In this document: in pieces, positions 8,003 through 23,380 of the stretch
How positions within the stretch are numbered: position 1 is the stretch's first letter
Layout: each line of letters starts with the position of its first letter
Assembly: GCA_031372565.1 (NCBI GenBank)
Contig: JANMLN010000053.1
Span: forward strand, 1-32,282
Length of the DNA stretch: 32,282 nt
Direction: 5' to 3'
DNA from: Gemmatimonadota bacterium
GTDB lineage: Bacteria > Gemmatimonadota > Gemmatimonadetes > Gemmatimonadales > Gemmatimonadaceae
Position numbers and translations under genes: made by a program
The notes under the pieces: generated by a model
Told to the model about the DNA's origin: nothing
Database searches by the model: none
The model's input: only the letters and a program-made list of their open reading frames with translations

Positions 8003-8503
8003 ATGGCCCAACTCAATTCATTCGACGTCACCACGGGCGTGGACCTGCAGGAGGTCGACAACGCCGTGAACCAGGCGCAGAAGGAAGTCGCGCAGCGCTA
8101 CGACTTCAAGGGCGCCACCGCCACCATCGAGTTCAAGCGGGTGGAAGGGCTGCTCAACCTCCACGCCGATTCCGACTTCCGCATGCAGCAACTGTGGGAT
8201 GTCGTGCAGACCAAGCTCATCAAGCGCCAGGTCCCGGTGAAGAACCTCGATGTCGGCAAGGACATCTCCGCCGGCGGCGACACGGTCAAGCGCGAGATCA
8301 AGCTCAAGATGGCGCTCGATGGCGACACGGCCAAGAAGGTGGCTGCCGCAATCAAGGAAGCCAAGATCAAGAAGGTGCAGGCGGCCATCCAGGGCGATCA
8401 GGTACGCATCTCGGGACCGGATCGCGACGACCTGCAGCAGGCCATGACCTTGCTCCGCGGCCAGGACTTCGGCGTGGAACTGAAGTTCGGGAACTACCGC
8501 TGA
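8003..8503 (+). CDS. yajQ: YajQ family nucleotide/c-di-GMP-binding protein
   Basis: SFDVTT..DLQEVDNAVNQA.KE..QRYDFKG, KVQAAIQGDQVRISG, RDDLQ and C-terminal FGNYR. Confidence 0.95.
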   Translation: MAQLNSFDVTTGVDLQEVDNAVNQAQKEVAQRYDFKGATATIEFKRVEGLLNLHADSDFRMQQLWDVVQTKLIKRQVPVKNLDVGKDISAGGDTVKREIKLKMALDGDTAKKVAAAIKEAKIKKVQAAIQGDQVRISGPDRDDLQQAMTLLRGQDFGVELKFGNYR

Positions 8504-10734
8504 CCGTCGGGCCCCGCCGTCTGCTGGTAGCGGTGCTTGCAGCGATCGGGCTGTGCGGCGCCAGCGCCCGAGCACAGGACGCGACCGGTACCGTCCGCAT
8601 CGTGGTGACAGCGCAGGACGCAGCCGTGCGCGGGGCCACGGTGCGCTCCGGGCGCGTGGGAGTGCGCACGGATTCCTCCGGCATCGGCCGGCTGACGCTC
8701 CCCGCGGGACGCGCGCGGATCGTGGTGCGCCAGATCGGCTTTCGGCCCGAGACGCTGTTTGTCGACGTTGCGTTGGGCGGCGCCGCCGAGCAGCGGGTCG
8801 CGCTCCGGACCGTGGCCGCCGCCGCCGCAGAGATGGACGACATGGCCGGTATGCCGGGAATGCCGGGCATGTCGCCGGCCATGAGCATGGCGACCATGGG
8901 CGACGTCCGCGTGACGGCCACGCGTTCCGAGCGCCGGATCGAGGATGAGCCGCTGCGCGTCGAGGTCATGTCCGGTGCCATGCTCGCAGAGCAGACGCAG
9001 ATGCGCCCGCGCGACATCACGATGACGCTGGCCGAGATGGGCGGCGTCCGCATGCAGCAGACGTCGGGCGCGCTCGGGGGCACGCGCTTGCGCATCAATG
9101 GCCTGCGCGGACAGTACACGGGCCTTGTCTTCGACGGCCTCCCGCTGTTCGGCGCTTCGCCGGATGGCTTCTCGTACCTGCAGGTGGCGCCGCTCGACCT
9201 GCAGCAGGTCGAGATCATCAAGGGCGCCTCGACGGCGCTCTACGGTCCCTCGGCTCTTGGCGGTGTGCTCAACCTCGTCTCGCGCCGGCCGGATGATACG
9301 CGCGAGCTGCTGAGCGACCTGACGACGCGTGGTGGCTCTGACCTTGCGTACTGGCAGGGAGCGACGCTCGGCGACGGCTGGGGCTGGTCGCTGGCGGCGA
9401 ATGGGCACCGACAGCCGGCCTACGACGAGGACGGCGATGGGTGGGCCGACTTTCCGTTCGCCGCGCGCGCGTCAGTCCGGCCACGCCTGCACTACGAGGG
9501 CGCCGGTGGTGCGGCGCTCTACGCCACGGTCGGTGTGCTCCTCGAGGATCGTGCGGGCGGCGGGCTCTGGCCACCCGCGGTGGGCTACACCGAAACGCTG
9601 CACACGACCCGTCTCGACGGCGGGCTGTCGTGGCACCAACCGATCGACGACTCGACCCGCATCGTGTTCAAGGCGAGCTTGGCCGAGACGCGTCGCGACC
9701 AGGTCTTTGGCGGCAGCCCCGATCGCCGACGTCGACTCACGGCCTACGGCGAAGTGGCGTGGGCGGCGCAGCGCGGAGCCGCGGAATGGCTGCTGGGCGG
9801 CGCGTGGCAGCACGACGCGCTCGACGCGCGCGATGCCGCGGCACTGGGTTTCGCCTTTGACGCGCCCGCCGTGTTCGCGCAGCACACGTGGACCCCGTCG
9901 GGCGCCTGGGCAACACAGGTGAGCGCACGGTGCGATGCGCACAGCGCCTACGGACTCCAGTGTGCACCGCGCGCGTCGGTGCGGTGGAAGCCGGTCACCG
10001 GCTGGAGCACGCGGCTCTCGGTGGGAGAAGGGTGGTTCGCGCCGACGCCCCTCACCGACGAGAGCGACGCGGTCGGGCTGTTGCGTATCGATCCCTCGAC
10101 GGTGAGCGCCGAGCGCGCACGCACCGTCTCGCTCGACTTCGGCGGCCAGCCGCTCGGGATCGAGATGAATCTCACGCTCGCATTGTCGCGGATCGACAAT
10201 CCCGTCCTCGGCGTGCCGGTCAGCGTCGGTGGCGTGGGCAAGCTGCGGTACCTGAATGCCTCCGGGCCTGCCACCACGCGCGCCGTGGAGTTCTTTGCCG
10301 AACGCCGCGTGGGTGCATGGGGCGCGCGCGTTCTCTACGGCTTCCTCGATGCCACGTTCGTCGATCCGATCGATGCGATGGGCAAGACGGCCGCGCTCGT
10401 GCCGCGTCACTCTGCCGGCGCGGGGCTCGAGTACGAGCGTGAAGGCGGAGCGCGCCTGAGCCTCGACGCGTACTACACAGGGACGCAGCGCCTCGAGGGG
10501 CATCCCACGCGCACGGAGAGTCCGCCGTACACGCTGGTCTGTCTGCTGTGGGCGCAGCCGTTGCGACCCGGGCTCGAACTCTGGATCAACGGGGAGAATC
10601 TCGTTGACGCCCGCCAGACGAACCTCGATGGCGTGCGGCTTGTCGCCCCCGACGCGCTGGGCCGGCGCACGCTGCCGGTGTGGGGACCGCTCGAGGGACG
10701 TGTGCTTAGCGTCGGGCTGCGTGCACGCTGGTAG
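8500..10734 (+). CDS. TonB-dependent outer-membrane receptor with an N-terminal extension and a Met-rich linker
   Basis: Signal peptide ending ARA-QD, an N-terminal beta domain, TonB-box-like VRVTATR, plug motifs (RINGL, QVEIIKGASTALYG..ALGGVLNLVS) and barrel end GRVLSVGLRARW. The start is uncertain (CTG 8500 or GTG 8533). Confidence 0.9.
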   Translation: MTVGPRRLLVAVLAAIGLCGASARAQDATGTVRIVVTAQDAAVRGATVRSGRVGVRTDSSGIGRLTLPAGRARIVVRQIGFRPETLFVDVALGGAAEQRVALRTVAAAAAEMDDMAGMPGMPGMSPAMSMATMGDVRVTATRSERRIEDEPLRVEVMSGAMLAEQTQMRPRDITMTLAEMGGVRMQQTSGALGGTRLRINGLRGQYTGLVFDGLPLFGASPDGFSYLQVAPLDLQQVEIIKGASTALYGPSALGGVLNLVSRRPDDTRELLSDLTTRGGSDLAYWQGATLGDGWGWSLAANGHRQPAYDEDGDGWADFPFAARASVRPRLHYEGAGGAALYATVGVLLEDRAGGGLWPPAVGYTETLHTTRLDGGLSWHQPIDDSTRIVFKASLAETRRDQVFGGSPDRRRRLTAYGEVAWAAQRGAAEWLLGGAWQHDALDARDAAALGFAFDAPAVFAQHTWTPSGAWATQVSARCDAHSAYGLQCAPRASVRWKPVTGWSTRLSVGEGWFAPTPLTDESDAVGLLRIDPSTVSAERARTVSLDFGGQPLGIEMNLTLALSRIDNPVLGVPVSVGGVGKLRYLNASGPATTRAVEFFAERRVGAWGARVLYGFLDATFVDPIDAMGKTAALVPRHSAGAGLEYEREGGARLSLDAYYTGTQRLEGHPTRTESPPYTLVCLLWAQPLRPGLELWINGENLVDARQTNLDGVRLVAPDALGRRTLPVWGPLEGRVLSVGLRARW

Positions 10735-10755
10735 GGCGCGTCGCGTCCGGACATT

Positions 10756-10865
10756 GTAGGATTGTGACATGCCCGAAGCCCGACTCCGCATCCGTCCCGG
10801 CGGCCCCGAGGATCACGCCGCCGTCCTCGAGATGGCGACCCGACTCTCCGACTTCCCCGTGCCGT
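10756..10865 (+). pseudogene. Truncated duplicate of the GNAT 5' end (upstream bases plus 32 codons)
   Basis: Matches 21484-21593 over 110 bp with 3 mismatches by eye; encodes the identical MPEARLRIRPGGPEDHAAVLEMATRLSDFPVP. Confidence 0.92.
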
Positions 10866-11150
10866 ATGCAGCAACTGTGGGATGTCGTGCAGACCAAGCA
10901 CATCAAGCGCCAGGTCCCGGTGAAGAACCTCGATGTCGGCAAGGACATCTCCGCGGGCGGCGACACGGTCAAGCGCGAGATCAAGCTCAAGATGGCGCTC
11001 GATGGCGAGACCGCAAAGAAGGTGCAGGCGGCCAGCCAGGGCGATCAGGTACGCATCTCGGGGCCAGATCGCGACGACCTGCAGCAGGCCATGACCTTGC
11101 TCCGCAGCCAGGACTTCGGCATCGCACTCAAGTTCGGGAACTACCGCTGA
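10866..11150 (+). pseudogene. yajQ: 5'-truncated, internally deleted yajQ copy
   Basis: Aligns to 8183-8503 with about 13 substitutions and a 36-bp deletion between AAGAAGGTG direct repeats; ends in the same FGNYR stop. Confidence 0.92.
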
Positions 11151-11225
11151 TCGCCCGCTGGCCGGCGTCCTGCCTGCGGGGCCGGCCATGCGGTCATCCA
11201 TTTCTCGCTCGCATCGGATGTGATC

Positions 11226-11600
11226 ATGACACGCCTCTTCCGCACCGCGCTGACTGCGTTCGTGCTCGTCCCCTTCGCGGTCGCGCCCGCGCACCCGAAG
11301 TTGCTGTCGTCAGTGCCGGCAGCCGGCAGTCGTGCGGCCGCGCCTCGCCAGCTCTCGCTCACCTTCAACGAGACCGTCACGCCGGCATTGAGTCGCATCG
11401 CCCTCACCAACGAGCGGCAACAGGTGATCGAGCTGGGCGCGGTGCGCGCGGACGCCGCCAATGATCACGTGCTCCTCGCCGACGTGAAGGGCGCGATGGC
11501 CAATGGGCGCTACACGGTGCGCTGGCAGGCGACGGGAGGCGACAGCCATCCGCTGCGCGGCTCGTACGCCTTCGAGGTTACCGCCGCACCGGCGCCCTGA
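11226..11600 (+). CDS. copC: Periplasmic copper-binding protein CopC
   Basis: Signal peptide ending APA, mature N-terminal His (HPKLLSSVP), LTFNE, YTVRW and DSHPLRGSY.F; directly upstream of copD. Alternative start GTG 11220. Confidence 0.9.
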   Translation: MTRLFRTALTAFVLVPFAVAPAHPKLLSSVPAAGSRAAAPRQLSLTFNETVTPALSRIALTNERQQVIELGAVRADAANDHVLLADVKGAMANGRYTVRWQATGGDSHPLRGSYAFEVTAAPAP

Positions 11601-12583
11601 TGCCCGGTGCCGCTCCGCAGGACAGCGCCGAGTCGGCGGTCTTCGGAGTCGAGTCGTCGCTCTACGTCCTGATCCGCATCGCGCATCTGGCCGCGGTGAT
11701 GACCCTCTTCGGTGCCATCGTGATGCGACTCGTCGTCGCTCCCCGGGCGGCACGACGGTCGGCCGTCTCGGCGTCGTTCGCCGCCGCGCTCGCTCATCGG
11801 CTGGACCGGACAATGTTCTCGGCGTCGCTCGCGCTGGCCGTGATCACGGTGGTGCGGCTCGCGGCGCAGCACGCCGCCCTGTTCGGGGTCGGGGAGTCAT
11901 GGACGGGCGACTCCCTCGGCGCACTGCTGTGGCACTCCGCGTGGGGGCGTGGATGGTGCCTCGCGTGGCTCGGCGTCGTCGCCGGGTTGGGAGGCGCGCG
12001 GATGTCCGGACAGCTGCAGCGGTGGGGGCTGCTCGTTGTTGCCATGGTGGCCACCGCCGTGAGTCTCGGCTACTCGGGACACCCCGCCGGCGCGCCGTCC
12101 CCGCTGATCGCGATCTTCGTGGATGCGCTGCATGTGGCCGGCGCCGGCGCTTGGCTGGGTGGTGTGGGCGGCCTCGTCCTCATCGGGGTCCCGCTCGCTC
12201 TCCACTGGAGGGAGGATGGCGGGCATCCGGCGCTCGCGGATCTGGTGGCCGCCTTCACGCCGGTCGCGCTCGCGGGCGCCGCGTTGGTCGGGGTCTCGGG
12301 GAGCGTCGCCGCATGGCGCAACGTCGGGTCGGTCGACCTCCTGCTGGCGAACCCATACGGACGCTGGCTGCTCGCCAAGCTTGCCGCGCTCGTCGCCGCC
12401 GCCTCCCTGGGCGCCTACAACTGGCGGCGGGTCGGTCCGTCGTTGGGTGATGCGCCCGGCACGCGCCGACTGAGGCGCGTCGCGAGTCTGGAGCTGGCGG
12501 CCATGCTGGTGGCGCTGCTCATCACGGCCGTGCTGGTGGCCACGCCGCTCCCTGAGGACTTCGCGGTCACGCGTACACCATAG
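11600..12583 (+). CDS. copD: CopD family inner-membrane copper protein
   Basis: About 8 TM helices, SGHPA, DALHV.GAGAWLGG and PYGRWLLAKL; overlaps the copC stop. Confidence 0.85.
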   Translation: MPGAAPQDSAESAVFGVESSLYVLIRIAHLAAVMTLFGAIVMRLVVAPRAARRSAVSASFAAALAHRLDRTMFSASLALAVITVVRLAAQHAALFGVGESWTGDSLGALLWHSAWGRGWCLAWLGVVAGLGGARMSGQLQRWGLLVVAMVATAVSLGYSGHPAGAPSPLIAIFVDALHVAGAGAWLGGVGGLVLIGVPLALHWREDGGHPALADLVAAFTPVALAGAALVGVSGSVAAWRNVGSVDLLLANPYGRWLLAKLAALVAAASLGAYNWRRVGPSLGDAPGTRRLRRVASLELAAMLVALLITAVLVATPLPEDFAVTRTP

Positions 12584-12622
12584 CTTCAGGAAAGCGGTTC
12601 CTCGCGGCTGGGAGCGCGTCCA

Positions 12623-14698
12623 ATGGAGCATGAGCATGAGCATGCGCGTGACGCGCACGGCGCGCACGGCGGGCACGCCGCGCACGCCGCGCACGCCGCG
12701 CACGCCGCGCACGCCGCCCACGACGCACACGCCGGACACTCCGTCGCGATGTTTCGCGACAAGTTCTGGATCACCGCTGCGCTGACGATCCCCATACTCG
12801 TGTGGGGCAGCATGCTGCCTCATGCGCTTGGCTTCGCGCCGCTCCACTTCCCGGGCTCGGCGCTGCTGTCGCCCGTGCTGGGCACCATCATCTTCGCCTA
12901 CGGAGGCTGGCCGTTCCTCCAGGGCGCCGTGCGTGAACTGCGTGAGCGCGCGCCCGGCATGATGACGCTCATCGCCATCGCGATCTCCGTCGCCTTCGCC
13001 TTCAGCATGGCCGTGGCCTTCGGCTTTCCGGGCATGCCGCTCTGGGAGGAGCTCGCCACGCTCGTGACGATCATGCTCCTCGGCCACTGGCTGGAGATGC
13101 GCTCCGTGTCGCAGGCGCAGGGGGCGCTCGGCGAGCTCGCCAAGCTGCTTCCGGCCACGGCCGTTCGAGTCACCGGTGCGCTCGATGCGGAGCACGCCGA
13201 GGACGTACCGGTGACGGACCTTCACGACGGCGAGACGGTCCTCATTCGCCCGGGCGCGGCGGTGCCTGCCGATGGCACGGTCCTGACCGGCGAGAGTGCG
13301 GTCAACGAGTCGCTCGTCACCGGCGAGTCGGCGCCCGTGGCCAAGACGGTTGGCGCGGCCGTCATCGCCGGCACCGTCAACGGCGCGGGCTCGCTGCGCG
13401 TGAAGGTCACCGGCACCGGCGATCATACGGCGCTCGCCGGCATCATGCGCTTGGTGGCCGCCGCGCAGGCCTCGCGTTCGCGTGCCCAGATGCTGGCCGA
13501 CCGTGCGGCGTTCTGGCTCACCTGGATCGCACTGGGATCCGGTGCACTGACCTTCGCGGCGTGGATGCTCTCGGGCGCGGGCGCCGCCGCGTCCATCGAA
13601 CGTCTCGTGACGGTACTCGTGATCGCGTGCCCGCATGCGCTCGGCCTCGCGGTGCCGCTCGTGCTCGCGATCTCCACCACCTTGGGCGCACGCAACGGCC
13701 TCCTGGTGCGTGACCGGCGCGGGTTGGAGGAGGCACGCAACCTCACCACGGTCGTCTTCGACAAGACCGGCACCCTCACGCTCGGCGCGCACCGCGTCGT
13801 CGGCATGCGCACCGTCGGCGGGCTCGCCGAGGATGACGCGCTGCGTCTCGCCGCCGCGGTGGAGCGCGACGCGGAACATTCGGTCGCGCGCGCCATTGTT
13901 GCGACGGCGGAGGAACGCAAGCTCGCCGTGAGCGCATCCACCGGCTTCGAGGCGATCCCGGGGCGCGGCGCACGGGCCATCGTGGACGGGCGGACGTTGT
14001 CTGTCGGCGGCCCCAACCTGCTCGCCGATGGATCCGTCACCCCCGCACCCGAGCTGGCCACGTTCGCCGCCGAGGCCGCCACGCGTGGTGAGGGCGCTCT
14101 CTATCTCCTGGAGGAGGGCCATACGCTGGCCGCGTTCTCTGTCGCGGACGCGATCCGTCCCGAATCCGCCGAAGCGGTGAAGCGGCTCCACGATGCCGGC
14201 ATCGAGGTGGTGATGATGACGGGGGATGCCGAGGCCGTCGCGCAGGCCGTGGCGCGAACGCTCGGCATCGAGGTGGTGCTGGCGCAGGTGCTTCCCGACG
14301 GGAAGGCCGCGCGCATCGAGGAGTTGAAGGCCAAGGGCAAGCGCGTCGCGATGGTCGGCGACGGGGTGAACGACGCCCCGGCGCTCGTCACGGCGAATGT
14401 CGGCATCGCGATCGGCGCCGGCACGCAGGTGGCCGTCGAGGCGGGGGACATCGTCCTCGTGCGCAGTGACCCGCGTGACGTCGCGCGCATCATCACGCTC
14501 TCGCGCGCCACGTATCGCAAGATGGTCCAGAACCTCTGGTGGGCCGCGGGCTACAACGTCGTGGCGATTCCGCTCGCGGCCGGGGTGCTCGCACCGTGGG
14601 GCATCGTGTTGACGCCGGCCGTGGGCGCGGTGCTCATGTCCTGCAGCACGATCGTCGTCGCGATCAACGCGCAGCTGTTGCGACGGGCTCGGCTGTAG
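12623..14698 (+). CDS. copB: Copper-translocating P1B-type ATPase, CopB/P1B-3 subtype
   Basis: His-rich N-terminus, TGES, CPHALGLA, DKTGT, GDGVNDAP, YN and MSCST. Confidence 0.92.
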   Translation: MEHEHEHARDAHGAHGGHAAHAAHAAHAAHAAHDAHAGHSVAMFRDKFWITAALTIPILVWGSMLPHALGFAPLHFPGSALLSPVLGTIIFAYGGWPFLQGAVRELRERAPGMMTLIAIAISVAFAFSMAVAFGFPGMPLWEELATLVTIMLLGHWLEMRSVSQAQGALGELAKLLPATAVRVTGALDAEHAEDVPVTDLHDGETVLIRPGAAVPADGTVLTGESAVNESLVTGESAPVAKTVGAAVIAGTVNGAGSLRVKVTGTGDHTALAGIMRLVAAAQASRSRAQMLADRAAFWLTWIALGSGALTFAAWMLSGAGAAASIERLVTVLVIACPHALGLAVPLVLAISTTLGARNGLLVRDRRGLEEARNLTTVVFDKTGTLTLGAHRVVGMRTVGGLAEDDALRLAAAVERDAEHSVARAIVATAEERKLAVSASTGFEAIPGRGARAIVDGRTLSVGGPNLLADGSVTPAPELATFAAEAATRGEGALYLLEEGHTLAAFSVADAIRPESAEAVKRLHDAGIEVVMMTGDAEAVAQAVARTLGIEVVLAQVLPDGKAARIEELKAKGKRVAMVGDGVNDAPALVTANVGIAIGAGTQVAVEAGDIVLVRSDPRDVARIITLSRATYRKMVQNLWWAAGYNVVAIPLAAGVLAPWGIVLTPAVGAVLMSCSTIVVAINAQLLRRARL
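12626..12739 (+). repeat. Coding microsatellites in the ATPase N-terminus: (GAGCAT)x3 and (CACGCCGCG)x4 plus degenerate units
   Basis: GAGCAT x3 at 12626-12643; CACGCCGCG x4 at 12674-12709 followed by CACGCCGCC. Confidence 0.9.
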
Positions 14699-17600
14699 TT
14701 CTCGCACGCACGAGCTGCCGTTCGCGCCACAGCGAGTAGACGGCGGGAATGACGACGAGCGTGAGCACGGTGCTGGAGATCATGCCGCCGACCATCGGCG
14801 CGGCGATGCGGCGCATCACGCTGCTGCCGGTGCCCGAGCCCCAGAGGATCGGCAGCAACCCGGCCATGATCGCTGTCACGGTCATCATCTTCGGTCGTAC
14901 GCGCTCCACCGCGCCCTCGACGATCGCCTCGCGGAGGTCGGCCACCGAGGGTACGCGCCCCGCGCCCGAGCGCGCCTTCCAGGCGTGGTCCAGGTACAGC
15001 AGCATGACCACGCCCGTCTCGGCGGCCACGCCGGTGAGCGCGATGAAGCCGATCGCCACCGCGACCGACCAGTTGAAGCCGAGCGCCCACGTGAGCCAGA
15101 GACCGCCGACCAGCGCGAACGGCAGCGACAGCATCACCAGCAGCGCCTCGCCCACGCTGCCGAAGTTCAGGAACAGGAGGAGGAAGATGAGGGCGAGCGT
15201 CGCAGGCACCACCACGCGCAGTCGCGCCTTCGCCCGCTCCATGTACTCGAACTGCCCGCTCCACTGGAGCGTGTAGCCCGCAGGCAGCACCACCTGCGCC
15301 GCGACCGTGCGCTGCGCGTCGGCCACGAACGCGCCGATGTCGCGACCGGTCACGTCCACGTACACCCACGCGGTCGGCTGCGCCCCCTCCGTGCGGACGA
15401 CCATCGGTCCGGCCACGCGGCGAATCGTCGCGACCTGGCCGAGGGGCACGTACGCCGTGCGCGGAGAAGCTGACGTGCGCGGCGTGGCGCCCTCGTTCAT
15501 GGAGCTGCTGCCTGGCGCCGCCCCCATGGCCCCCCCGACGCCGTGCAGCACCGGCACCAGCACATCTTCGAGGCGCTCGGGCGTGTCGCGCAACTCCTGC
15601 GGGTATCGCACCCGCACGGCATACCGCTCCCGCCCCTCGACCGCCTGCGTCACCGTCATCCCGCCGACCGCGGCAGCGATGACCGTCTGCACGTCGCCGA
15701 CGTTGAGTCCATGCTGCGCGGCGGCCGCGCGATCGATCGTGATGTCGAGGTAGTAGCCGCCCGCCGCGCGCTCCGCGAACGCGCTCCGCGTCCCCGGCAC
15801 GGCCTGCACCGCCGCCTCGACGAGCCGCGCGATTCGCTCGAGTTCCGCCAGGTCCGGGCCATACACCTTGATCCCCACGGGCGTCCGGATTCCTGTCGCC
15901 AGCATGTCGATGCGCCCGCGAATCGGCTGCGTCCACGCCGTGCGCACGCCCGGCGAGCGCACCGCGGAATCCATCTCGGCCACGAGCCGTTCGGACGTCA
16001 TGCCCGCCCGCCACGCTGCGGGCGGTCGCAGCACGATCGTCGTCTCGAACATCTCGAGTCCCGCCGGGTCCGTGGCCGTGCCCGCGCGCCCGGCCTTGCC
16101 GAACACGCTGGCCACCTCGGGAAACGATTTCAGGATCGCGTCCTGCTGGCGCAGCAGTTCGCGGGCACGCGCGATGCTCACGCCGGGCATCGTCGTCGGC
16201 ATGAAGAGCAGCGTCCCCTCGTCGAGCGGCGGCATGAACTCGCTGCCCACGCGCTGCCACGGGATCCACGAGAGGAGGAGCACCACCGCAGCGCCGCCGA
16301 TCACGGCCCATCGCCGCGCGAGCACCATCGCGATCACCGGCCGGTAGAGCCCGACCAGCGCGCGGTTGACCGGGTTGTCGCGCTCGGCGCGGATCCGCCC
16401 GCGAACGAGCAGCCCCATGGCCACCGGCACGAGCGTCACGGACAGCAACGCCGCCGAAGCCATGGCGAGCGTCTTCGTGAGCGCCAACGGCGTGAACAGC
16501 CGTCCTTCCTGTCCCTCGAGGGCGAAGACGGGCAGGAAGCTCACCGTGATGATCAGCAGCGAGACGAACAGCGCCGGGCCGACCTCGGCGGCCGATTCGC
16601 CCACCACGCGCCAGCGCGTGGTCGCATCCAGCCGCCCGATGTCGAGTCGGCCCCCGTCGCCCGACTCTGCGGGGAGCGCCACGAGGACGCGTTCGAGGTG
16701 CTTGTGCAGGTTCTCGATCATGACGATGGCCGCATCGATCATGGCGCCGATCGCGATCGCGATGCCGCCGAGCGACATGATGTCGGCGCCGACACCGGCC
16801 ACGCGCATGCCGGCGAAGGCCAGCAGGATGCCCACCGGCAGTGTCAGGATCGCGACCAGCGCACTCCGGGCATGCAGCAGGAAGATGATGCAGACGAGCG
16901 CCACCACGAGCGATTCCTCGAGCAGCGTGCGGCGCAGCGTGCCGATGGCGCGCTCGATCAGCTCCGACCGATCGTAGACCGCGCGGACCACGACGCCCGG
17001 TGGGAGGCTGGACTGCACCTCGGCGAGTCGCGCGCGCACGCGCTCGATGGTCGCGAGCGCGTTCTCTCCCTGCCGCATGATCACGATGCCACCCACGACG
17101 TCGCCGCGGCCGTCGAGATCGGCGAGGCCCCGCCGCGCGGCCGGGCCGATCGTCACGCGCGCAAGGTCCGCCACGCGGATGGGCGTTCCCGCTTCCGTTG
17201 CGCCGACGACCACATCCTCGATATCCCGCATGCCGTGCAGGTAGCCGAGTCCGCGCACCATGTACTCGCGCTCGCTCAGCTCGAGCACCATCGCGCCGAC
17301 GTCCGCGTTGCCATTCGCGATCGCCGCCATCACCTGCCCGATCGCGAGCCCGTACGCCTGCAGCCGGTCCGGATCCACGTCCACCTGGTACTGCTTCTCG
17401 AATCCCCCCACGCTCGCGACTTCGGCCACGCCCGGCACGGCGGTCAGCGCGTAGCGCAGCGACCAGTCCTGCAGCGATCGCAGCTCCGCGAGATCGCGAC
17501 GCCCGGTCGTGTCCTCGAGCACGTACTGGAACACCCACCCGAGGCCGGTCGCATCGGGGCCGAGGCGCGGTGACGCGCCCACCGGCAGGCGCTCGCGGAT

Positions 17601-17948
17601 GCCGCTCAGCGTCTCCGTGACGCGCGTGCGCGCCCAGTAGAGATCCGTGCCGTCCGCGAAGATCACGTACACGAACGAGACGCCGAAGAACGAGTAGCCG
17701 CGCACCGTGCGCGCGCCGGGCACCTTGAGCATCTCCGCCGCGATCGGATACGTCACCTGGTCCTCGACGATGCGCGGCGCCTGCTCGCCGTACGGCGTCT
17801 CGACGATCACCTGCACGTCGGAAAGGTCGGGCAGCGCCTCCAGCGGAGTGTGCCGAAGCGCCCACACGCCGCCAGCGCAGCCGGCCGCCGTCAGGAACAG
17901 CACGAGCAGGCGATTCCGCAGCGACCAGAGAATGAGGCGGCTCAACAT
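14664..17948 (-). CDS. cusA: CusA/CzcA heavy-metal RND permease, Cu(I)/Ag(I) type
   Basis: ALPDLSDVQVI, LGPDATGLGWV, GAMIDAAIVM, CusA-like Met positions (EFMPPLDEG, LEMFET, IDMLATG) and RVRPKMMT. Confidence 0.94.
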   Translation of the reverse strand: MLSRLILWSLRNRLLVLFLTAAGCAGGVWALRHTPLEALPDLSDVQVIVETPYGEQAPRIVEDQVTYPIAAEMLKVPGARTVRGYSFFGVSFVYVIFADGTDLYWARTRVTETLSGIRERLPVGASPRLGPDATGLGWVFQYVLEDTTGRRDLAELRSLQDWSLRYALTAVPGVAEVASVGGFEKQYQVDVDPDRLQAYGLAIGQVMAAIANGNADVGAMVLELSEREYMVRGLGYLHGMRDIEDVVVGATEAGTPIRVADLARVTIGPAARRGLADLDGRGDVVGGIVIMRQGENALATIERVRARLAEVQSSLPPGVVVRAVYDRSELIERAIGTLRRTLLEESLVVALVCIIFLLHARSALVAILTLPVGILLAFAGMRVAGVGADIMSLGGIAIAIGAMIDAAIVMIENLHKHLERVLVALPAESGDGGRLDIGRLDATTRWRVVGESAAEVGPALFVSLLIITVSFLPVFALEGQEGRLFTPLALTKTLAMASAALLSVTLVPVAMGLLVRGRIRAERDNPVNRALVGLYRPVIAMVLARRWAVIGGAAVVLLLSWIPWQRVGSEFMPPLDEGTLLFMPTTMPGVSIARARELLRQQDAILKSFPEVASVFGKAGRAGTATDPAGLEMFETTIVLRPPAAWRAGMTSERLVAEMDSAVRSPGVRTAWTQPIRGRIDMLATGIRTPVGIKVYGPDLAELERIARLVEAAVQAVPGTRSAFAERAAGGYYLDITIDRAAAAQHGLNVGDVQTVIAAAVGGMTVTQAVEGRERYAVRVRYPQELRDTPERLEDVLVPVLHGVGGAMGAAPGSSSMNEGATPRTSASPRTAYVPLGQVATIRRVAGPMVVRTEGAQPTAWVYVDVTGRDIGAFVADAQRTVAAQVVLPAGYTLQWSGQFEYMERAKARLRVVVPATLALIFLLLFLNFGSVGEALLVMLSLPFALVGGLWLTWALGFNWSVAVAIGFIALTGVAAETGVVMLLYLDHAWKARSGAGRVPSVADLREAIVEGAVERVRPKMMTVTAIMAGLLPILWGSGTGSSVMRRIAAPMVGGMISSTVLTLVVIPAVYSLWRERQLVRARTTAEPVATAAR

Positions 17949-17958
17949 GCGATGATCC

Positions 17959-19263
17959 TCATGGCTGGCGCCGCTTGGTCGGCGTCGCGGGGCGAACGGC
18001 CTTGGCGGGTTCGCGCGGGGCCACGGGCATGCTCATGTCCATGCCGGGCATGTCCCCCATGCCGCCGAGCACGGTCCCGAGATTCGACTCCGCATCGAGG
18101 AGGAACGTCCCCGAGGCCACCACCGTGTCGCCCGCGGAGAGGCCGCTGAGGATCTCCACGAGGTGTTCGCTGGACGCGCCCAGCGTGACGAGATGCGGTA
18201 CGAGCATTCCGCCCTCGCCCTTCACGAAGACGAGGCTGCGCTCGCCGGTGGTCAGGACGGCGCTGCGCGGCACGCTCACCACGCGCGCCGTGCCGGGCGA
18301 CTGGACACGCAGCGTGGCCACCATGCCGGGCTTGAGCTGGCCATCCGCATTCGCGAACTCGGCGCGCACCCGGGCGGTGCGCGTGGCAGGGTCGAGCGTG
18401 GGGTAGATGTAGCGGACTGAGCCGCGCAGTTGCTCACCGGGGCGTGATCGGAATTCGGCCGTCACGCGCTGGCCGACATGCACGCTGCCGAGGTCCTGCT
18501 CGAACACCGCCCCCTCCACCCAGACCACCGAGAGATCAGCGACGCGGAAGAGCGGCTGCCCGGCCATCACCTGCTGGCCGGCCACCACGTTCTTCTCGAT
18601 CACCACGCCGCTGGCCGGCGCCGCGAAGGGCACCGCGCGGATCACGCGGCCCGTCTCCTCCACGCTCTGGATCGTCGCGTCGCTCACGTCCCACTGGCGC
18701 AGCCGGCGACGGGCGCCGTCCACGAGCGCCTGCGCGCCCGCGCGCGCGTCCTGTCCGCCGGCCGGGGTCGCCGGGCTTCCCGCGAGCGAGGTGCCGAGTC
18801 GGAGCGCGAGCAGCAACTCCTCCTGCGCGCTCACGAGCATTGGCGAGTAGAGGGCGAGCATCGGCTCGCCGCGGCGCACCGGGCGGCCGGTGAAGTCGAG
18901 CGCAAGCGACTCCACCCAACCGTCCACCTTGAGCGAGAACACGCGCTGCCGCGTCTCGTCCACGCGCACGTCACCGACGAGGCGGATCTCGCGCGTCACC
19001 GGCGCCGCGGATGCCACGGCAAACGTGACGCCGATCCGCTGTGCGTCGCCCGCGCCCAGCTGCACGGAGCGCGGCACGTCGCTCGGCGTGCTGCCGCCCA
19101 TGGTCGCATGATCGTGTCCGCCCGCTGCGCTGGTGTCGGGCGCTGCGGCTGGCGCCGCGCCCGGCGTGCGCGAGAACCACCACACCGCGCCGCCCGCGAC
19201 CGCGAGCACGACGGCAAACCGAGCGAGTGCGCGCGGCGAGAGGCGATCCGTGTTGTCGCTCAT
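17959..19263 (-). CDS. cusB: RND periplasmic adaptor (CusB-like membrane fusion protein)
   Basis: N-terminal TM, GWVE, YSPMLVSAQEE, ADLSVVWV, IYPTLD..TRT, LKPGM and FLLDAES; lies between the OMF and the permease. Confidence 0.9.
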   Translation of the reverse strand: MSDNTDRLSPRALARFAVVLAVAGGAVWWFSRTPGAAPAAAPDTSAAGGHDHATMGGSTPSDVPRSVQLGAGDAQRIGVTFAVASAAPVTREIRLVGDVRVDETRQRVFSLKVDGWVESLALDFTGRPVRRGEPMLALYSPMLVSAQEELLLALRLGTSLAGSPATPAGGQDARAGAQALVDGARRRLRQWDVSDATIQSVEETGRVIRAVPFAAPASGVVIEKNVVAGQQVMAGQPLFRVADLSVVWVEGAVFEQDLGSVHVGQRVTAEFRSRPGEQLRGSVRYIYPTLDPATRTARVRAEFANADGQLKPGMVATLRVQSPGTARVVSVPRSAVLTTGERSLVFVKGEGGMLVPHLVTLGASSEHLVEILSGLSAGDTVVASGTFLLDAESNLGTVLGGMGDMPGMDMSMPVAPREPAKAVRPATPTKRRQP

Positions 19264-20672
19264 CGCAGTTCCTCCTCGGTCGTCAGGCGGGAAGCCGCGT
19301 TCACCAGCGCGCGGCCCGTCAGCATCTCCAGTTCCGCCACGGCCTTGCCTTCGCTCGCGCGGAGGGCGTACCCCTCCTGGCGGATCCGGTTCGTCGTCAT
19401 GTGCGCCTCAAGCAGCGTCATGAAGTCCACGCTGCCGCTGCGATACGCGGCCGTCGCGGCGTCGCGGGCGGCGATCGCCTGCGGGAGCAACGTGCCCGCG
19501 TAGAGGGCGCGCAGGGCACGGCTCTGTCGCAGCATCGCCGTCGCCTCGCGCAGCAACGAGCGGCCCTCGACCTCCATCGCGCGCACGTCCGCCTCCGCCA
19601 TCGTGCGCATCGCGCTGGCCTCCGTACGCATCGCGCCCGTTCGACCGAACAGCGGCAGGCTGGCGCCGACCATCGCGCTCGTCATCCACTCCGCACTCCC
19701 GCCCATCCCGGCCGGCGCGGCGCTGGGTGGACGACGCGCGAGCTGCACGCCGAACTCGAGGTCCGGCCACCGCTCGCGGCGGGCGAGCGTCTCCGATTCG
19801 GCGGCGGCTACGGCCTCGTGCCGTCCGGCCACCAGCATCGGGCGCGTCGCCGTGGCGCCCGGCGCGAGACTGTCCGGCACGAGGTCGAGCCGCGGAATGC
19901 GCAGCACGAGCGTATCCGCGTCCACGTCGAGGGCGAGCCACGCGCCGAGCCGCGCCGCCAGCGTGGCGCGCATGCTCTGCATGCGGATCACGTCCTCGGC
20001 CATCCGGGTGATCTCCATCTGCGCCCGGAGCACGTCGGCCTGGCGGCCCTGACCGACGCGGTACATCGCGGCCGCGGCGTCGGCGGCTTGGGCGAGCAGC
20101 GCCTGTGTCTCGCGCGTGACCGTGAGCTGACGTTCGAGCGCCCACAGGTCGTAGAAGGCGATCGCGGCGTCGCGCCGCGCGTCCCACCACCGCGCGTCGG
20201 CGCGCGCGCGGGCCGACGAAACGCGCGCTTCGGCGACGCGCTCCGCGTTGCCGCGCTTGCCCGCCAGGGGAAACATCTGCATCACCTGAAGCTGGTCCAT
20301 GCCGAGCGTTTCCATCGGGCGAAGCGATGGCAGCTCGCGGTTCATCGCGCCGAGCTGCACACGGGGGTCCGGAAGCGCGGTCGCGATCGGCACGCGGGCG
20401 GCTGCCACGTCGACAGCGGCGCGAGCGGCCGCCAACTGCGAGTTGTGCGAAGCAAGTCGCAGAAAGACCCGATCGAGCGAGAGTCCCGCAGTGTCAGCCG
20501 TGAGCGGCGCACCGGGAAGCCCGGGCGGCGCTTGGGCACGAGGCGACTGGCTGGCCAGCGGTCCAGCCGCGGCAAGCGACGCGAGGAGGCCGCCTACGGC
20601 CAAGACACGCGAGCGACGACTTGCCGGAAAAACGGCAGGGGAACGGAAGAGAAGGTCAAACAGGGGCGACAT
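19260..20672 (-). CDS. TolC-family outer-membrane efflux protein (CusC-like)
   Basis: Signal peptide, LPDP, QMFPLAGK, YRVG..DVLRAQ and AYRSGSVDF..LL; overlaps the cusB start. Confidence 0.9.
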   Translation of the reverse strand: MSPLFDLLFRSPAVFPASRRSRVLAVGGLLASLAAAGPLASQSPRAQAPPGLPGAPLTADTAGLSLDRVFLRLASHNSQLAAARAAVDVAAARVPIATALPDPRVQLGAMNRELPSLRPMETLGMDQLQVMQMFPLAGKRGNAERVAEARVSSARARADARWWDARRDAAIAFYDLWALERQLTVTRETQALLAQAADAAAAMYRVGQGRQADVLRAQMEITRMAEDVIRMQSMRATLAARLGAWLALDVDADTLVLRIPRLDLVPDSLAPGATATRPMLVAGRHEAVAAAESETLARRERWPDLEFGVQLARRPPSAAPAGMGGSAEWMTSAMVGASLPLFGRTGAMRTEASAMRTMAEADVRAMEVEGRSLLREATAMLRQSRALRALYAGTLLPQAIAARDAATAAYRSGSVDFMTLLEAHMTTNRIRQEGYALRASEGKAVAELEMLTGRALVNAASRLTTEEELR

Positions 20673-20812
20673 GAGTCACACGACTCCAAGGCAGGCGGGG
20701 CCACGTGGTGAACGCGGACGATCCGTGACGGCCGCACGGCCCGCCGCGCACGAACGGCGCGGACGGGGGAGCGGTCACGGGAAGTGCGCAAGACCGTCGG
20801 CACGTTCACCGC
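20673..20812 (-). promoter_or_regulatory. Structured intercistronic RNA: a long imperfect hairpin plus an RBS-pairing hairpin
   Basis: Plus-strand coordinates: GGTGAACG (20707-20714) with CGTTCACC (20803-20810), and CCGTGAC (20723-20729) with GTCACGG (20774-20780). On the mRNA, GAGTC-GTGT-GACTC overlaps the GGAG SD and abuts the ATG. Confidence 0.55.
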
Positions 20813-20830
20813 CCGGTGTTGCGCGAGGCC

Positions 20831-21265
20831 TCAGGCCTTGGGAGGGGGGGTGCTCGGCGGCTCGAGAAAGCTCCGCGGTGCGGAGGCGTTCCGCATCGCG
20901 GGGGCTACGCGCAGCACGGCGACCACCGGCCAGGTCGCGCCCGAGGCGGGCATGCCGAGACCGTTCCCCATCGTTGCGCAATGCGCGATGGTCCCCGGCA
21001 TGCTGCCGTCACAGGGATCATCGGTGTTCGTGCGCGTCGTCCGTTGCGTGGCCGGCACCGCGTCGGATACGACGGCGGACATGCCGTCGGAGGGCGCGCC
21101 CATCGACATCATGGCGTGTGCATCGCCGACGTCGGCGCCGACCGTCATGGCGGCGACGATCTCGCGCTGCGTGCACCCGCCGTCAGCCTGGAACGCCTGT
21201 CGCGCGAACGTGCACAACAGGAGGAGGTTGATGGCAATGCGAAAGAAGCGACGAGGACTGGCCAC
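20831..21265 (-). CDS. Small exported Met/Cys/His-rich protein with a Pro-rich C-terminus (CutF/CruR/CzcI-like leader)
   Basis: From GTG 21265: MASPRRFFRIAINLLLLCTFARQAFQA signal-like segment, HAMMSM, C-x10-C (HCATM) and terminus EPPSTPPPKA; first gene of the efflux operon. Confidence 0.65.
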   Translation of the reverse strand: MASPRRFFRIAINLLLLCTFARQAFQADGGCTQREIVAAMTVGADVGDAHAMMSMGAPSDGMSAVVSDAVPATQRTTRTNTDDPCDGSMPGTIAHCATMGNGLGMPASGATWPVVAVLRVAPAMRNASAPRSFLEPPSTPPPKA

Positions 21266-21324
21266 GGTGAATCGAGTCTGGGCAGGCGGTTGCAGGACGC
21301 CGGGGCGGATCGCGGTGTGTACAG

Positions 21325-21351
21325 GGACTACCCGACAGTCCGAGTATAGCA
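21325..21351 (-). promoter_or_regulatory. Candidate extended -10 promoter with overlapping inverted repeats
   Basis: Minus-strand TGcTATACT (21351-21343); GGACT-N7-AGTCC (21325-21341); TACCCG-N6-CGAGTA (21329-21346). Confidence 0.5.
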
Positions 21352-21496
21352 CACGCTGGCTCAACCGGGGTCGGGCGGCGCCTCAGCGCGTGTAGGTGAG
21401 TCGCCACCCCCGCGCGTTCCCCGGGACCGGGCGCTGCGTCTAGCCCCTGCCGGATGGCTGGGGCGCGAACGGCACCATGGTCAGTATGATTGTGGC

Positions 21497-21970
21497 ATGC
21501 CCGAAGCCCGACTCCGCATCCGTCCCGGCGGCCCCGAGGATCACGCCGCCGTCCTCGAGATGGCGACCCGACTCTCCGACTTCCCGGTGCCGTCGTGGCG
21601 AACCGCGACGGAGATTTCGCGCGCCGACGACCAGTTGCTGCTCGAGCAACTGTACGCGCCGCGCGTGGACCGCGTGTTGCTGGTGGCCGAGTTCACGGCC
21701 GCGCAGGCCAAGGGGATGATCATGGTCAGCACGCGCATCGACTACTTCACGCAGCAGCCGATCGCACACATCGAGGATCTGGCCGTGGCGCTCGACGCCG
21801 AGCGACAGGGCATCGCATCGGCGCTCATGTCGGCCGCCGAGGAGTGGGCGCGTGCGCGCGGCGTGACGCGCATGGGGCTCACCGTCTGGGAAGCGAACGC
21901 CCGGGCGCGCCGCTTCTACGACCACAGCGGCTACCGCGCCGAGACGATTCACTACCTCAAGGAACTCTGA
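21497..21970 (+). CDS. GNAT family N-acetyltransferase
   Basis: AHIEDLAV, ERQGIASALM (acetyl-CoA motif A) and LTVWEANARARRFY..GY. Confidence 0.92.
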   Translation: MPEARLRIRPGGPEDHAAVLEMATRLSDFPVPSWRTATEISRADDQLLLEQLYAPRVDRVLLVAEFTAAQAKGMIMVSTRIDYFTQQPIAHIEDLAVALDAERQGIASALMSAAEEWARARGVTRMGLTVWEANARARRFYDHSGYRAETIHYLKEL

Positions 21971-23166
21971 CCGCGGACGCGGTGCTTGAACGGCCGCGTG
22001 GTTCCCCCGGAGCCCGGCGCGGAGAGCACGGGGCGCCACCGGGCCACCAGGTCGCGAAAGAGCTCCCCCACCGGCTTGAGCGCGCGCGTCCCCTCGGCGA
22101 GTCCGATGTCCTCCATGACGCGAGGGCCAGGACCCAGTCGAGGCGCGTCCGTGAGCGGCGCCCAGCCGAACCCCGCGACCTCGATGCCGGCCGCGCGGAG
22201 CGAGAGCACGTCGTCCCACTGCTGCTTGAGCCAGGCGCGTGCGTGGCGGGCCGGCGCGTGCGTCTCGGCGCACAGCAAGGGCAACCCGTAGCGTTCGTGG
22301 AGCCGGGCCCCGAGGTGGCGGAGACCGAGTCGCTGCACCACGGACGTCTCGCGTCCCGCCGACGTCAGGCGACGCTCGGTGTCGGGCGCCCAGGCGACGC
22401 TCAAGACGCGCCGGGCCATGCGCGCACCACGCGCGTCGGCAAGGAAGTGCATCGCGCTCTCCGGCACGCCGGCGTTCAGGAGCGACGTGCGCGTGGCGTC
22501 GCCGACGTCGTGCCCGAGACAGAGATCGAGCCCCAACCAGCGCCGGGCGTTGCGGCGCTCGGCTTCCGCGCGCGCGCCCTCGCCTGCGGCGTGCGCATGC
22601 GCGGCCGGCGCGCTCATGACGATCGTGGCATCGGGGCGCTCGGCGCGAATGGCCGCGACGGCGAGCTCATGCGCGCGCGCCATGTTGGCGATCGTGCGCA
22701 GGAGGTCGGCGTCGCTGGCGCGTGCCTCGTTCCAGCGTCCGTGCAACGCGCTGGCCTCGGCGGTCTCGAGCAGCGAGCGCACCGGCGCGTAGTGGGTGAT
22801 CCACGGAAAGCGTCGGGCGAACGCCTGCGCATACTCCGCGAACAGGTCGGGGAAGCGGGGATCGCCGACGCCGCTCATCCACCTCGGGACCCCGGCGTGC
22901 GCGAGATCGGCGATCGGCATGATGCCGAGCAGTCGCAGCCGCTCCATCGGCTCGGCGCACGTATCCCAGTCGTAGTGCCCTGGGCTGACGTGGGACCGGT
23001 AGTAGGCGGGTCCGTAGAAGATCGCGTCCAGGCCCACGCGGTGCGCCAGCGCGAAATCGTCTTCCCAGCGGGCGTAGTGGCCCGACCGATCCAACTGGTC
23101 GGCGCGCTCCCCGCCGGCGAGGGCGGGGGCGCGGGTATCGATGCCGGAGACGAAGAGAAAGGACAT
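21952..23166 (-). CDS. Glycoside hydrolase family 1-like protein
   Basis: F.F.SGID start, HYARWEDDF.LA, YDWD, IADL.H.GVP.W, YAQAFARRFPWI..Y.P, ERYGLPL..AET and GFGW.PLTD. Likely start ATG 23166. Confidence 0.75.
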   Translation of the reverse strand: MSFLFVSGIDTRAPALAGGERADQLDRSGHYARWEDDFALAHRVGLDAIFYGPAYYRSHVSPGHYDWDTCAEPMERLRLLGIMPIADLAHAGVPRWMSGVGDPRFPDLFAEYAQAFARRFPWITHYAPVRSLLETAEASALHGRWNEARASDADLLRTIANMARAHELAVAAIRAERPDATIVMSAPAAHAHAAGEGARAEAERRNARRWLGLDLCLGHDVGDATRTSLLNAGVPESAMHFLADARGARMARRVLSVAWAPDTERRLTSAGRETSVVQRLGLRHLGARLHERYGLPLLCAETHAPARHARAWLKQQWDDVLSLRAAGIEVAGFGWAPLTDAPRLGPGPRVMEDIGLAEGTRALKPVGELFRDLVARWRPVLSAPGSGGTTRPFKHRVRGQSSLR

Positions 23167-23380
23167 GGTGGTGAGCAAATAGACGATCCACAACACGAAG
23201 CGTCAACGCGGCGGCATATTGTGGACAAACGGTGTAAGGCGATGCAGGAGAAAGTGATGCCGACGCATCACAAAGATGACGCTAGGTCAAGCCTCGAGAC
23301 GGCCAGCGGCACGGTCTGCGGCGCGTGCTCGCCGTGTTAGTTTTGCGCCTTCGGTTGCGGCTCCTCGTCATCCTGCTCAC

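Follow-up and report, generated by a model that had tools for sequence, protein, structure and literature searches.

How can one interval of a bacterial chromosome come to hold two different cargos in tandem with no integrase beside them? The question is raised by a 32,282-bp contig (C33, analysed whole and called the window here) of a Gemmatimonadaceae metagenome-assembled genome (MAG; 201 contigs, 95.85% complete, 2.01% contamination). Its order, confirmed to the base, is intact yajQ, a TonB-dependent receptor gene (TBDR), the 5′ piece of a GNAT acetyltransferase gene, a joint, the 3′ piece of a second yajQ, a copper cluster and an intact GNAT gene. A preliminary description had claimed this order, and repeat search, alignments and Pfam/NCBIfam assignments bear it out, with every coordinate correct. 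On balance we favour, by a modest preference, the view that a single lineage combined two alleles of the same slot, through one illegitimate joint together with one homologous exchange.

Two direct repeats define the structure. The repeat search, which is ungapped, matches yajQ positions 8170–8357 to 10853–11040 (91%) and 8369–8506 to 11016–11153 (93%); when a 36-bp gap is permitted in pairwise alignment, 272 of 285 aligned bases are identical (95.4%). Both methods also pair 10756–10865 with 21484–21593 (107 of 110 bases, 97%). The repeats interleave because the first copy of the GNAT repeat stops at 10865 and the second copy of the yajQ repeat begins at 10866; between these two bases the sequence switches from GNAT position +97 to yajQ position +181. 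When the two versions of the slot are compared, homology ends at the yajQ stop codon and restarts 13 nt before the GNAT ATG. Given these clean boundaries, the copper cluster sits exactly where the TBDR module sits, which is what one would expect of an alternative allele.

The yajQ and GNAT genes have two 10-mers in common and no 11-mer. One of the two, TCCGACTTCC, stops short of the yajQ breakpoint by 2 nt and of the GNAT breakpoint by 9 nt. A shared 10-mer occurs in shuffled 50-nt breakpoint windows with P = 0.0023, and for a breakpoint pair drawn at random the chance of lying within 25 nt of such a 10-mer in each gene is P = 0.025. As read from the sequence, the joint points to illegitimate recombination aligned by microhomology.

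An assembler that concatenated the alleles of two strains might have produced such a joint, given that the window is one contig among the 201 of a MAG whose contamination is estimated at 2%, and that the runs containing it all come from one study, possibly its source. We regard an assembly or binning artefact of this kind as extremely improbable. Assemblers join sequence where words recur; the longest word common to yajQ and GNAT is a 10-mer from which the joint is offset, so no assembler word made the joint; the yajQ piece is truncated, deleted and decayed, and is therefore not a second intact allele. Three runs of a freshwater-sediment study (X1–X3) contain 0.59–0.90 of sampled window words. 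A Logan contig built by another assembly pipeline (run X2, record 10, 932 nt) spans 10210–10900 with 0 mismatches, crossing the joint with 656 nt on its left and 35 nt on its right (34 of the 35 are common to both yajQ copies, the last being fragment-specific). Depth is similar over TBDR and copper genes in all three samples (7.3–8.7 versus 6.5–11.2 in X1, 4.4–5.9 versus 4.2–6.0 in X2 and 5.0 versus 3.3–5.1 in X3), these being rough values from perfect-match contigs with a single figure per contig. The crossing contig, the cargo depths and the decay of the fragment together argue against the chimaera at 10865/10866 for which the preliminary description had asked a check. The other joints among the matches listed have short sides (20–29 nt) and probably belong to other organisms; no alternative single-cargo junction is among the joints listed in the Logan contig matches. 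A run from a second study (X5) holds 0.10 of the words, in pieces with mismatches, and gives no independent support. Contigs in X1 (depth 16.7) and X2 (depth 9.7) link GNAT 3′-like sequence (21927) to copC 5′-like sequence (11273) with 9 other letters between; they may represent another organism with GNAT–copC adjacency, or a short-sided spurious joint.

The yajQ fragment records what followed the event. Over aligned columns it is 95.4% identical to the window's own yajQ and 81–87% identical to yajQ of G001, G003, G004 and G005, four other species of the genus; its nearest relative is therefore the resident gene, which places the partner in the same species-level lineage or in the same genome. 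In the fragment, 36 bp are deleted in frame; the missing stretch is precisely what separates the two copies of a 10-nt direct repeat, CAAGAAGGTG, in intact yajQ, and the loss is a slippage deletion. The remaining 13 differences in 285 aligned bases were polarised with four outgroups. Six are derived on the fragment, five of them non-synonymous (L72H, I129S, G153S, V158I and E159A) at positions that do not vary across five species. Another three, all synonymous, arose on intact yajQ, and four are ambiguous. For comparison, intact yajQ differs from that of G003 in 27 synonymous and 4 non-synonymous codons. By this substitution pattern the fragment has drifted without constraint after the event, by roughly 2–3% per site, and the arrangement is therefore not recent.

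Between the GNAT piece and the intact copy, three of 110 positions differ, two within the 13 nt upstream of the gene and one synonymous. A TAnnATTnnGnCATG (TAnnAT) box 7 nt 5′ of the GNAT ATG, present at 10757–10768 and 21485–21496 and conserved in G001–G004, suggests a leaderless-type GNAT start; it coincides with the place where homology between the slot versions restarts. The box was duplicated along with the fragment, and one copy now stands upstream of ′yajQ–copC–copD–ATPase. The yajQ fragment starts exactly at the Met61 codon, and its frame is open from a GTG at 10764 to 11150 (128 aa); translation from the GNAT start at 10769 reads it out of frame, giving an open reading frame (ORF) at 10769–11464.

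Table 1. Coordinates, strands and assignments of features in the window
Feature	Position	Strand	Evidence or remark
Intact yajQ (YajQ family cyclic-di-GMP-binding protein, DUF520)	8003–8503	+	Pfam PF04461 2e-58; NCBIfam NF003819 195 bits vs cut-off 146; slot left edge
Shared 10-mer TCCGACTTCC within yajQ	8171–8180	+	Ends 2 nt before yajQ breakpoint at 8183
TBDR (CarboxypepD_reg, Plug and beta-barrel domains), cargo 1	8533–10734	+	Pfam
GNAT 5′ fragment, 13 nt upstream plus first 97 coding nt	10756–10865	+	107/110 identical to 21484–21593
Illegitimate joint 10865/10866, with shared 10-mer (10847–10856) just upstream	10847–10868	+	Alignments, word comparison
yajQ 3′ fragment, codon 61 to stop (11148–11150), 285 nt	10866–11150	+	Alignment; Pfam DUF520 positions 55–161
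Cargo 2, entire	11151–21483		10,333 bp
copC	11220–11600	+	NCBIfam NF033814 93.7 bits, slightly below cut-off 95
copD	11600–12583	+	NF033808 79.9 bits, far below cut-off 195; Pfam CopD 63.6 bits vs cut-off 32.1
Copper P-type (P1B) ATPase	12623–14698	+	TIGR01511 567.6 bits vs cut-off 397
cusA/czcA-type RND pump	14664–17948	-	TIGR00914 1167.6 bits vs cut-off 701
cusB-like adaptor	17959–19263	-	Pfam HlyD_D23
TolC-like outer-membrane factor	19260–20672	-	Pfam OEP
Cargo 2 right end, ~0.8 kb without family match	20673–21483		Candidate ORFs, e.g. 20831–21364 (-); no Pfam/NCBIfam match
Intact GNAT acetyltransferase, ORF 21497–21970, with 13-nt upstream element	21484–21970	+	Pfam PF00583 1.3e-16; slot right edge
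GH1-like ORF, downstream backbone	21952–23196	-	
rimO, downstream backbone	23276–24763	+	NCBIfam TIGR01125 RimO 413.7 bits vs cut-off 357

The searches turned up no mark of a mobile element in the window, as had been claimed: no integrase or transposase domain was found among the 45 window ORFs scanned (Pfam, E ≤ 1e-5), and a search of the window found no tRNA genes. Inverted repeats with arms of at least 40 nt amount to three pairs, 70–71% complementary, none of which brackets the cargo or is tied to a boundary. GC content is 0.66–0.75 throughout and neither cargo stands out as foreign by composition; promoter and terminator scans gave chance-level results. A miaB-like label for the gene at 23276–24763 was rejected, its score falling below the MiaB cut-off and above the RimO cut-off of NCBIfam.

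The slot varies within the genus. Orthologues of GNAT occur in all five other species (74–87% amino acid identity), and the window yajQ is 83–97% identical to its same-genus orthologues at the amino acid level. In G001, G003 and G004 the order is yajQ, a small extra ORF, TBDR, GNAT, a GH1-like gene and rimO; the G002 contig is cut inside TBDR, leaving TBDR–GNAT visible, and in G005 yajQ lies 35 bp from GNAT. The receptor at this position in G001–G004 is 69–74% identical to the window TBDR in amino acid sequence, which makes these proteins orthologues; the alternative of a different receptor allele (~50% identity) was rejected on this in-frame identity. The TBDR comparison covers the five same-genus genomes, the 80 family loci described below giving no figure on TBDR presence. 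Copper genes are in the slot in none of the five. Three slot states are thus found within the genus, and the strain states predicted by the preliminary description are matched in part: receptor only (G001, G003 and G004, and G002 as far as visible) and neither cargo (G005) both occur, and a copper-only state is seen in 0 of 5 genus genomes and 0 of 80 family loci, with no close JGI match.

The small ORF between yajQ and TBDR in G001, G003 and G004 is rich in Met, His and Cys, runs to ~145–155 aa (L034:5014–5460, minus strand, with equivalents in L035 and L036) and ends in PPPKA, PPPNA or PPPRA. Its Met/His-rich stretch presumably resembles copper-binding motifs, which hints that the resident TBDR module may be metal-related too. 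The window has no such ORF, the TBDR start lying 30 bp beyond the yajQ stop. The window ORF 20831–21364 (minus strand), which also ends in PPPKA, was rejected as a homologue (BLASTP E = 54).

At the level of the family, a contig scan gave 562 yajQ relatives, of which the best 80 were taken, all but three labelled Gemmatimonadota or lower ranks. Around yajQ they share a conserved backbone of sigma-54 activator, aldehyde dehydrogenase, signal peptidase, sigma-70 factor, yajQ and rimO, sometimes with an aminotransferase, SpoIID and a Gfo/Idh/MocA oxidoreductase. In the 65 loci with both genes, yajQ and rimO are adjacent in 39, separated by 67–338 bp in 5 and by 395–7128 bp in 21. The gaps hold Ig-like proteins, 2-hydroxyacid dehydrogenases, GH1-like proteins, a GGDEF/HD protein, a solute-binding protein, a DUF4153 protein, a pyridoxal phosphate (PLP) enzyme and a MarR–GNAT fusion. 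None of the 40 gap ORFs scanned (the five shortest of 45 being left out) has an integrase or transposase Pfam domain, and 20 of the 40 have no Pfam match at all. Varied content between conserved genes makes the site a hotspot in the sense described by Oliveira et al. 2017 (PMC5635113). The differing genus states and the inserts at 21 of 65 family yajQ–rimO loci bear out the proposal that the interval is a variable slot. A second yajQ piece is present in 0 of 85 related loci.

Other features of these loci deserve mention. The sigma-70–yajQ gap, usually ~0.9–1.4 kb, is enlarged to 3.3–7.8 kb in eight loci (L057, L059, L060, L064, L067, L078, L099 and L124), and there appear to be variable spots on both sides of yajQ. 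Short tandem or inverted repeats of ~80–140 bp lie at the yajQ–rimO boundary at L085:3836–4015, L112:16062–16259 and L094:10490–10631.

Is the copper cluster itself accessory? It is the only close set in the MAG: the best paralogues reach 41.5% (ATPase) and 36.5% (CusA), and CopC, CopD, CusB and CusC have none there at E ≤ 1e-10 with more than half coverage. G005 and G003 carry copper genes at other loci (CopC 52–54%, CopD 48–49%, ATPase 76%; CusA 72% in G005 and 35% in G003), much less similar than core genes such as yajQ (83–97%). From its singularity in the MAG, its other locations in relatives and this low similarity it follows that the cluster is accessory and that its location differs between species. 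At its right end, the candidate ORFs of 20673–21483 have no tblastn match, either at 11 family cus loci or in the rest of the MAG. The sequence upstream of the copper-side GNAT bears a weak likeness to the relatives' TBDR–GNAT spacer (4–6 of 500 shuffles score at least as high, with no correction for multiple tests), a faint hint of a TBDR remnant there, and no TBDR remnant was seen beside the yajQ piece.

These observations would fit a slot that extends from the yajQ stop codon to the element just 5′ of the GNAT start and exists in alternative alleles. One, yajQ–TBDR–GNAT, would be the resident allele and the state of most of the genus; the structure alone does not tell which cargo was resident, and the genus pattern favours TBDR. 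The other, yajQ–copper cluster–GNAT, would have come from a conspecific or near-conspecific genome. We infer this copper-only allele, and with it the direction of transfer; every scenario that explains the clean boundaries requires a yajQ–copper–GNAT allele. An ordinary double homologous exchange would replace one cargo with the other, and here the incoming DNA would have been added instead: one end would be fixed by homologous recombination in the shared flank and the other closed by the illegitimate joint of GNAT +97 to yajQ +181, aligned by the shared 10-mer. The topology could have been either of two that give the same product, a linear donor in the manner of homology-facilitated illegitimate recombination (HFIR), or a donor fragment circularised at the joint and integrated by a single crossover in the 110-bp GNAT or 285-bp yajQ homology. 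As in a Campbell-type integration, the GNAT repeats bracket ′yajQ plus the copper cluster and the yajQ repeats bracket TBDR plus GNAT′. The redundant GNAT 5′ and yajQ 3′ pieces would afterwards have decayed in place. A ComEC-family gene is present in the MAG; such genes are common and are no proof of competence.

Several points weigh against this merger of alleles. The proposed donor arrangement, yajQ–copper–GNAT alone, occurs in 0 of 5 same-genus genomes, and 0 of 80 family yajQ loci have any copper gene within 10 kb; a CopC search of JGI metagenome contigs gave one 28%-identical match and none close, and the cluster DNA finds at best ≤78% identity, in partial matches, among 121 family genomes. 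The divergence of the yajQ copies fits a starting difference of zero as well as it fits a few allelic differences, so a second genome is not required by this evidence. At the switch itself the identity extends over only 0–3 nt, and the 10-mer lies apart from it, by 2 nt on the yajQ side and by 9 nt on the GNAT side. No Ku gene, which could serve end-joining and circle closure, was found in the 95.85%-complete MAG. The homologous anchor is duplicated, unlike the textbook HFIR outcome of deletion as described in PMC3240628. In the bridging X2 contig the other 241 nt are unplaced among the matches listed, and X1–X3 may include the MAG's own source, which makes them a check on the assembly and not independent biology.

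The chief competitor starts within one genome. A RecA-independent tandem duplication from yajQ +181 to GNAT +97 at the same microhomology would give yajQ–TBDR–GNAT′/′yajQ–TBDR–GNAT, the second TBDR being replaced later by the copper cluster through double homologous exchange with a copper allele or through insertion–deletion. Tandem duplication classically shows itself by an end-to-start joint at a short direct repeat, and just such a joint is present in the window, with the 10-mer at both breakpoints; the yajQ piece, moreover, is compatible with identity to the resident gene at time zero. This history nevertheless takes two events, and its clean boundaries still need a yajQ–copper–GNAT donor. 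The faint similarity upstream of the copper-side GNAT and the lack of any visible TBDR remnant beside the yajQ piece are also poor traces of a replaced second receptor, and unselected tandem duplications are unstable. We hold it possible, though doubtful. The same joint signature would apply if an ancestor had carried both cargos in the slot and the whole segment had been duplicated in tandem, each copy then losing a different cargo; this calls for three precisely bounded events, copper genes occupy the slot in 0 of 5 same-genus genomes, and the first copy retains the TBDR–spacer–GNAT arrangement of the relatives, so that we give such complementary loss very little credence. Similarly improbable is an unrecognised site-specific or mobile element that placed the copper cluster, its recombinase acting in trans or lying within 20673–21483. 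The ~0.8 kb without family match at the right end of the cargo, the 20 of 40 gap ORFs of other loci without Pfam match and the tight slot boundaries would all suit it. Against it, integrase, transposase and tRNA were not found, the three inverted-repeat pairs (70–71%) do not bracket the cargo, the joint falls within two coding sequences, at a 10-mer shared by chance and not at a conserved attachment site, and the candidate ORFs are not kept beside other cus clusters.

The merger of two slot alleles, as we prefer to read the window, could have been selected or neutral. Selection is a speculative and rather unlikely proposal: it would rest on the element-free gain of a large adaptive cluster while the resident gene was kept at a family-wide hotspot, and the copper genes could come under new control through the duplicated element upstream of GNAT. 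Were it true, additive stacking of alleles would contribute generally to the growth of islands in Gemmatimonadaceae, a family that at this locus is apparently poor in mobile elements. The broader suggestion of the preliminary description, a general route for accumulating metal-resistance cargo, would be an extrapolation from one case, set against the 85 related loci that all lack a second yajQ piece.

Self-comparison of the MAG found no other interleaved scar. The only exact abutment elsewhere is on contig C12, where a 132-bp copy of the 3′ end of a CitMHS transporter gene (21084–21215 and 25839–25970; L137) abuts a ~870-bp segment 93% identical to the C161:1155–1927 region (L138), which has an rve integrase-core ORF. 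The abutment encloses ~4.6 kb of cargo (a helix-turn-helix (HTH) protein, a ThiF-family protein and unknowns). It was rejected as a second stacked scar, since it looks like an ordinary integrase- or insertion sequence (IS)-associated island with an rve integrase copy. On C149, an ~80-bp direct repeat (21355–21437 and 24443–24520, 88%; L141) surrounds a single 3-kb M14-peptidase-like gene that sits between M16 peptidase and methionine sulfoxide reductase genes.

What we describe is a single natural instance of an already known kind of event, integrase-free gene gain, with an unobserved donor. As one event of a known kind whose donor allele is unobserved, it has its value as a clean example and not as a new principle. 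Integrase-free turnover hotspots are common, yet the recombination events that build them seldom leave a readable trace; here both parental flanks persist as decayed, dated pieces around a microhomology joint resolved to the base. If two alleles did merge as proposed, a 10 kb metal-resistance cluster would have been added via housekeeping recombination functions alone, in a little-studied phylum. The locus offers a natural structure on which models of HFIR, circle integration and prior duplication can be tested.

Among known systems, HFIR has been described in Acinetobacter baylyi, Streptococcus pneumoniae and Pseudomonas stutzeri (PMC5361080, PMC2884548 and PMC3240628). The preliminary description had likened the window to it, and the likeness holds for one illegitimate joint beside a short GC-rich microhomology at one end of the acquired DNA, to which a putative homologous anchor would correspond at the other, and for a gain without mobile-element function. 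It fails for HFIR in the strict form described in PMC3240628, where recipient DNA is deleted and the anchor stays single; here GNAT is doubled over 110 bp and yajQ over 285 bp, and no recipient deletion accompanies the part of the anchor (110 bp of GNAT) that was duplicated. Homology for the second end would be supplied by GNAT and its downstream sequence, or by yajQ and its upstream sequence, in either of which the crossover may lie. The putative donor, moreover, is near-conspecific and homologous on both flanks, so that plain replacement was possible too. Ours is a case known from DNA alone, in an organism in which natural transformation is putative.

As described in PMC3240628, apparent HFIR products of Escherichia coli conjugation that duplicated 109–950 bp were single crossovers of circular molecules in 56 of 60 clones, and by this standard the duplicated anchor argues against filing our case as strict HFIR. 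In both, a direct duplication of the homologous segment flanks the insert (109–950 bp there, 110 or 285 bp here). The circle in that study is a plasmid, whereas here the molecule that closed at the GNAT′/′yajQ joint would have been a piece of chromosome, in a MAG where Ku was not found. Tandem segmental duplication is matched by the novel end-to-start joint beside the shared 10-mer; unlike such duplications, the units are not homologous throughout, just the 285-bp and 110-bp ends repeating and the TBDR and copper cluster being unrelated. An integrase-borne island would be expected to show an integrase or recombinase gene together with an attachment site, often at a tRNA gene, and a composite transposon or IS-bounded unit would show IS copies on its flanks or terminal inverted repeats. 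The window yielded no integrase, recombinase or transposase domain (Pfam, 45 ORFs), no tRNA and no boundary inverted repeats (arms of at least 40 nt), in contrast to the C12 island of this MAG with its rve integrase copy.

In the account of Oliveira et al. (PMC5635113), many hotspots lack mobile elements and their turnover is attributed to recombination in flanking core genes. The slot resembles them in its variable content between conserved core genes, free of integrase and tRNA; their model is one of double homologous exchange and replacement, whereas here the outcome is additive and involves a joint of illegitimate type. By analogy, and as these systems are described in PMC5361080, the closest natural analogues are the immunity arrays of Vibrio cholerae type VI secretion systems (T6SS) and the displacement of Rhs C termini: T6SS effector–immunity arrays, and C-terminal displacement in Rhs and contact-dependent inhibition (CDI) systems, are explained there by HFIR-like addition. 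There as here, a new module is added at a conserved locus, the older one is kept alongside and gene remnants are left. Those arrays are recurrent, have one constant flank and carry toxin–immunity genes, whereas the slot described here records a single event that left scars of both flanks and set a nutrient receptor beside a metal-efflux cluster.

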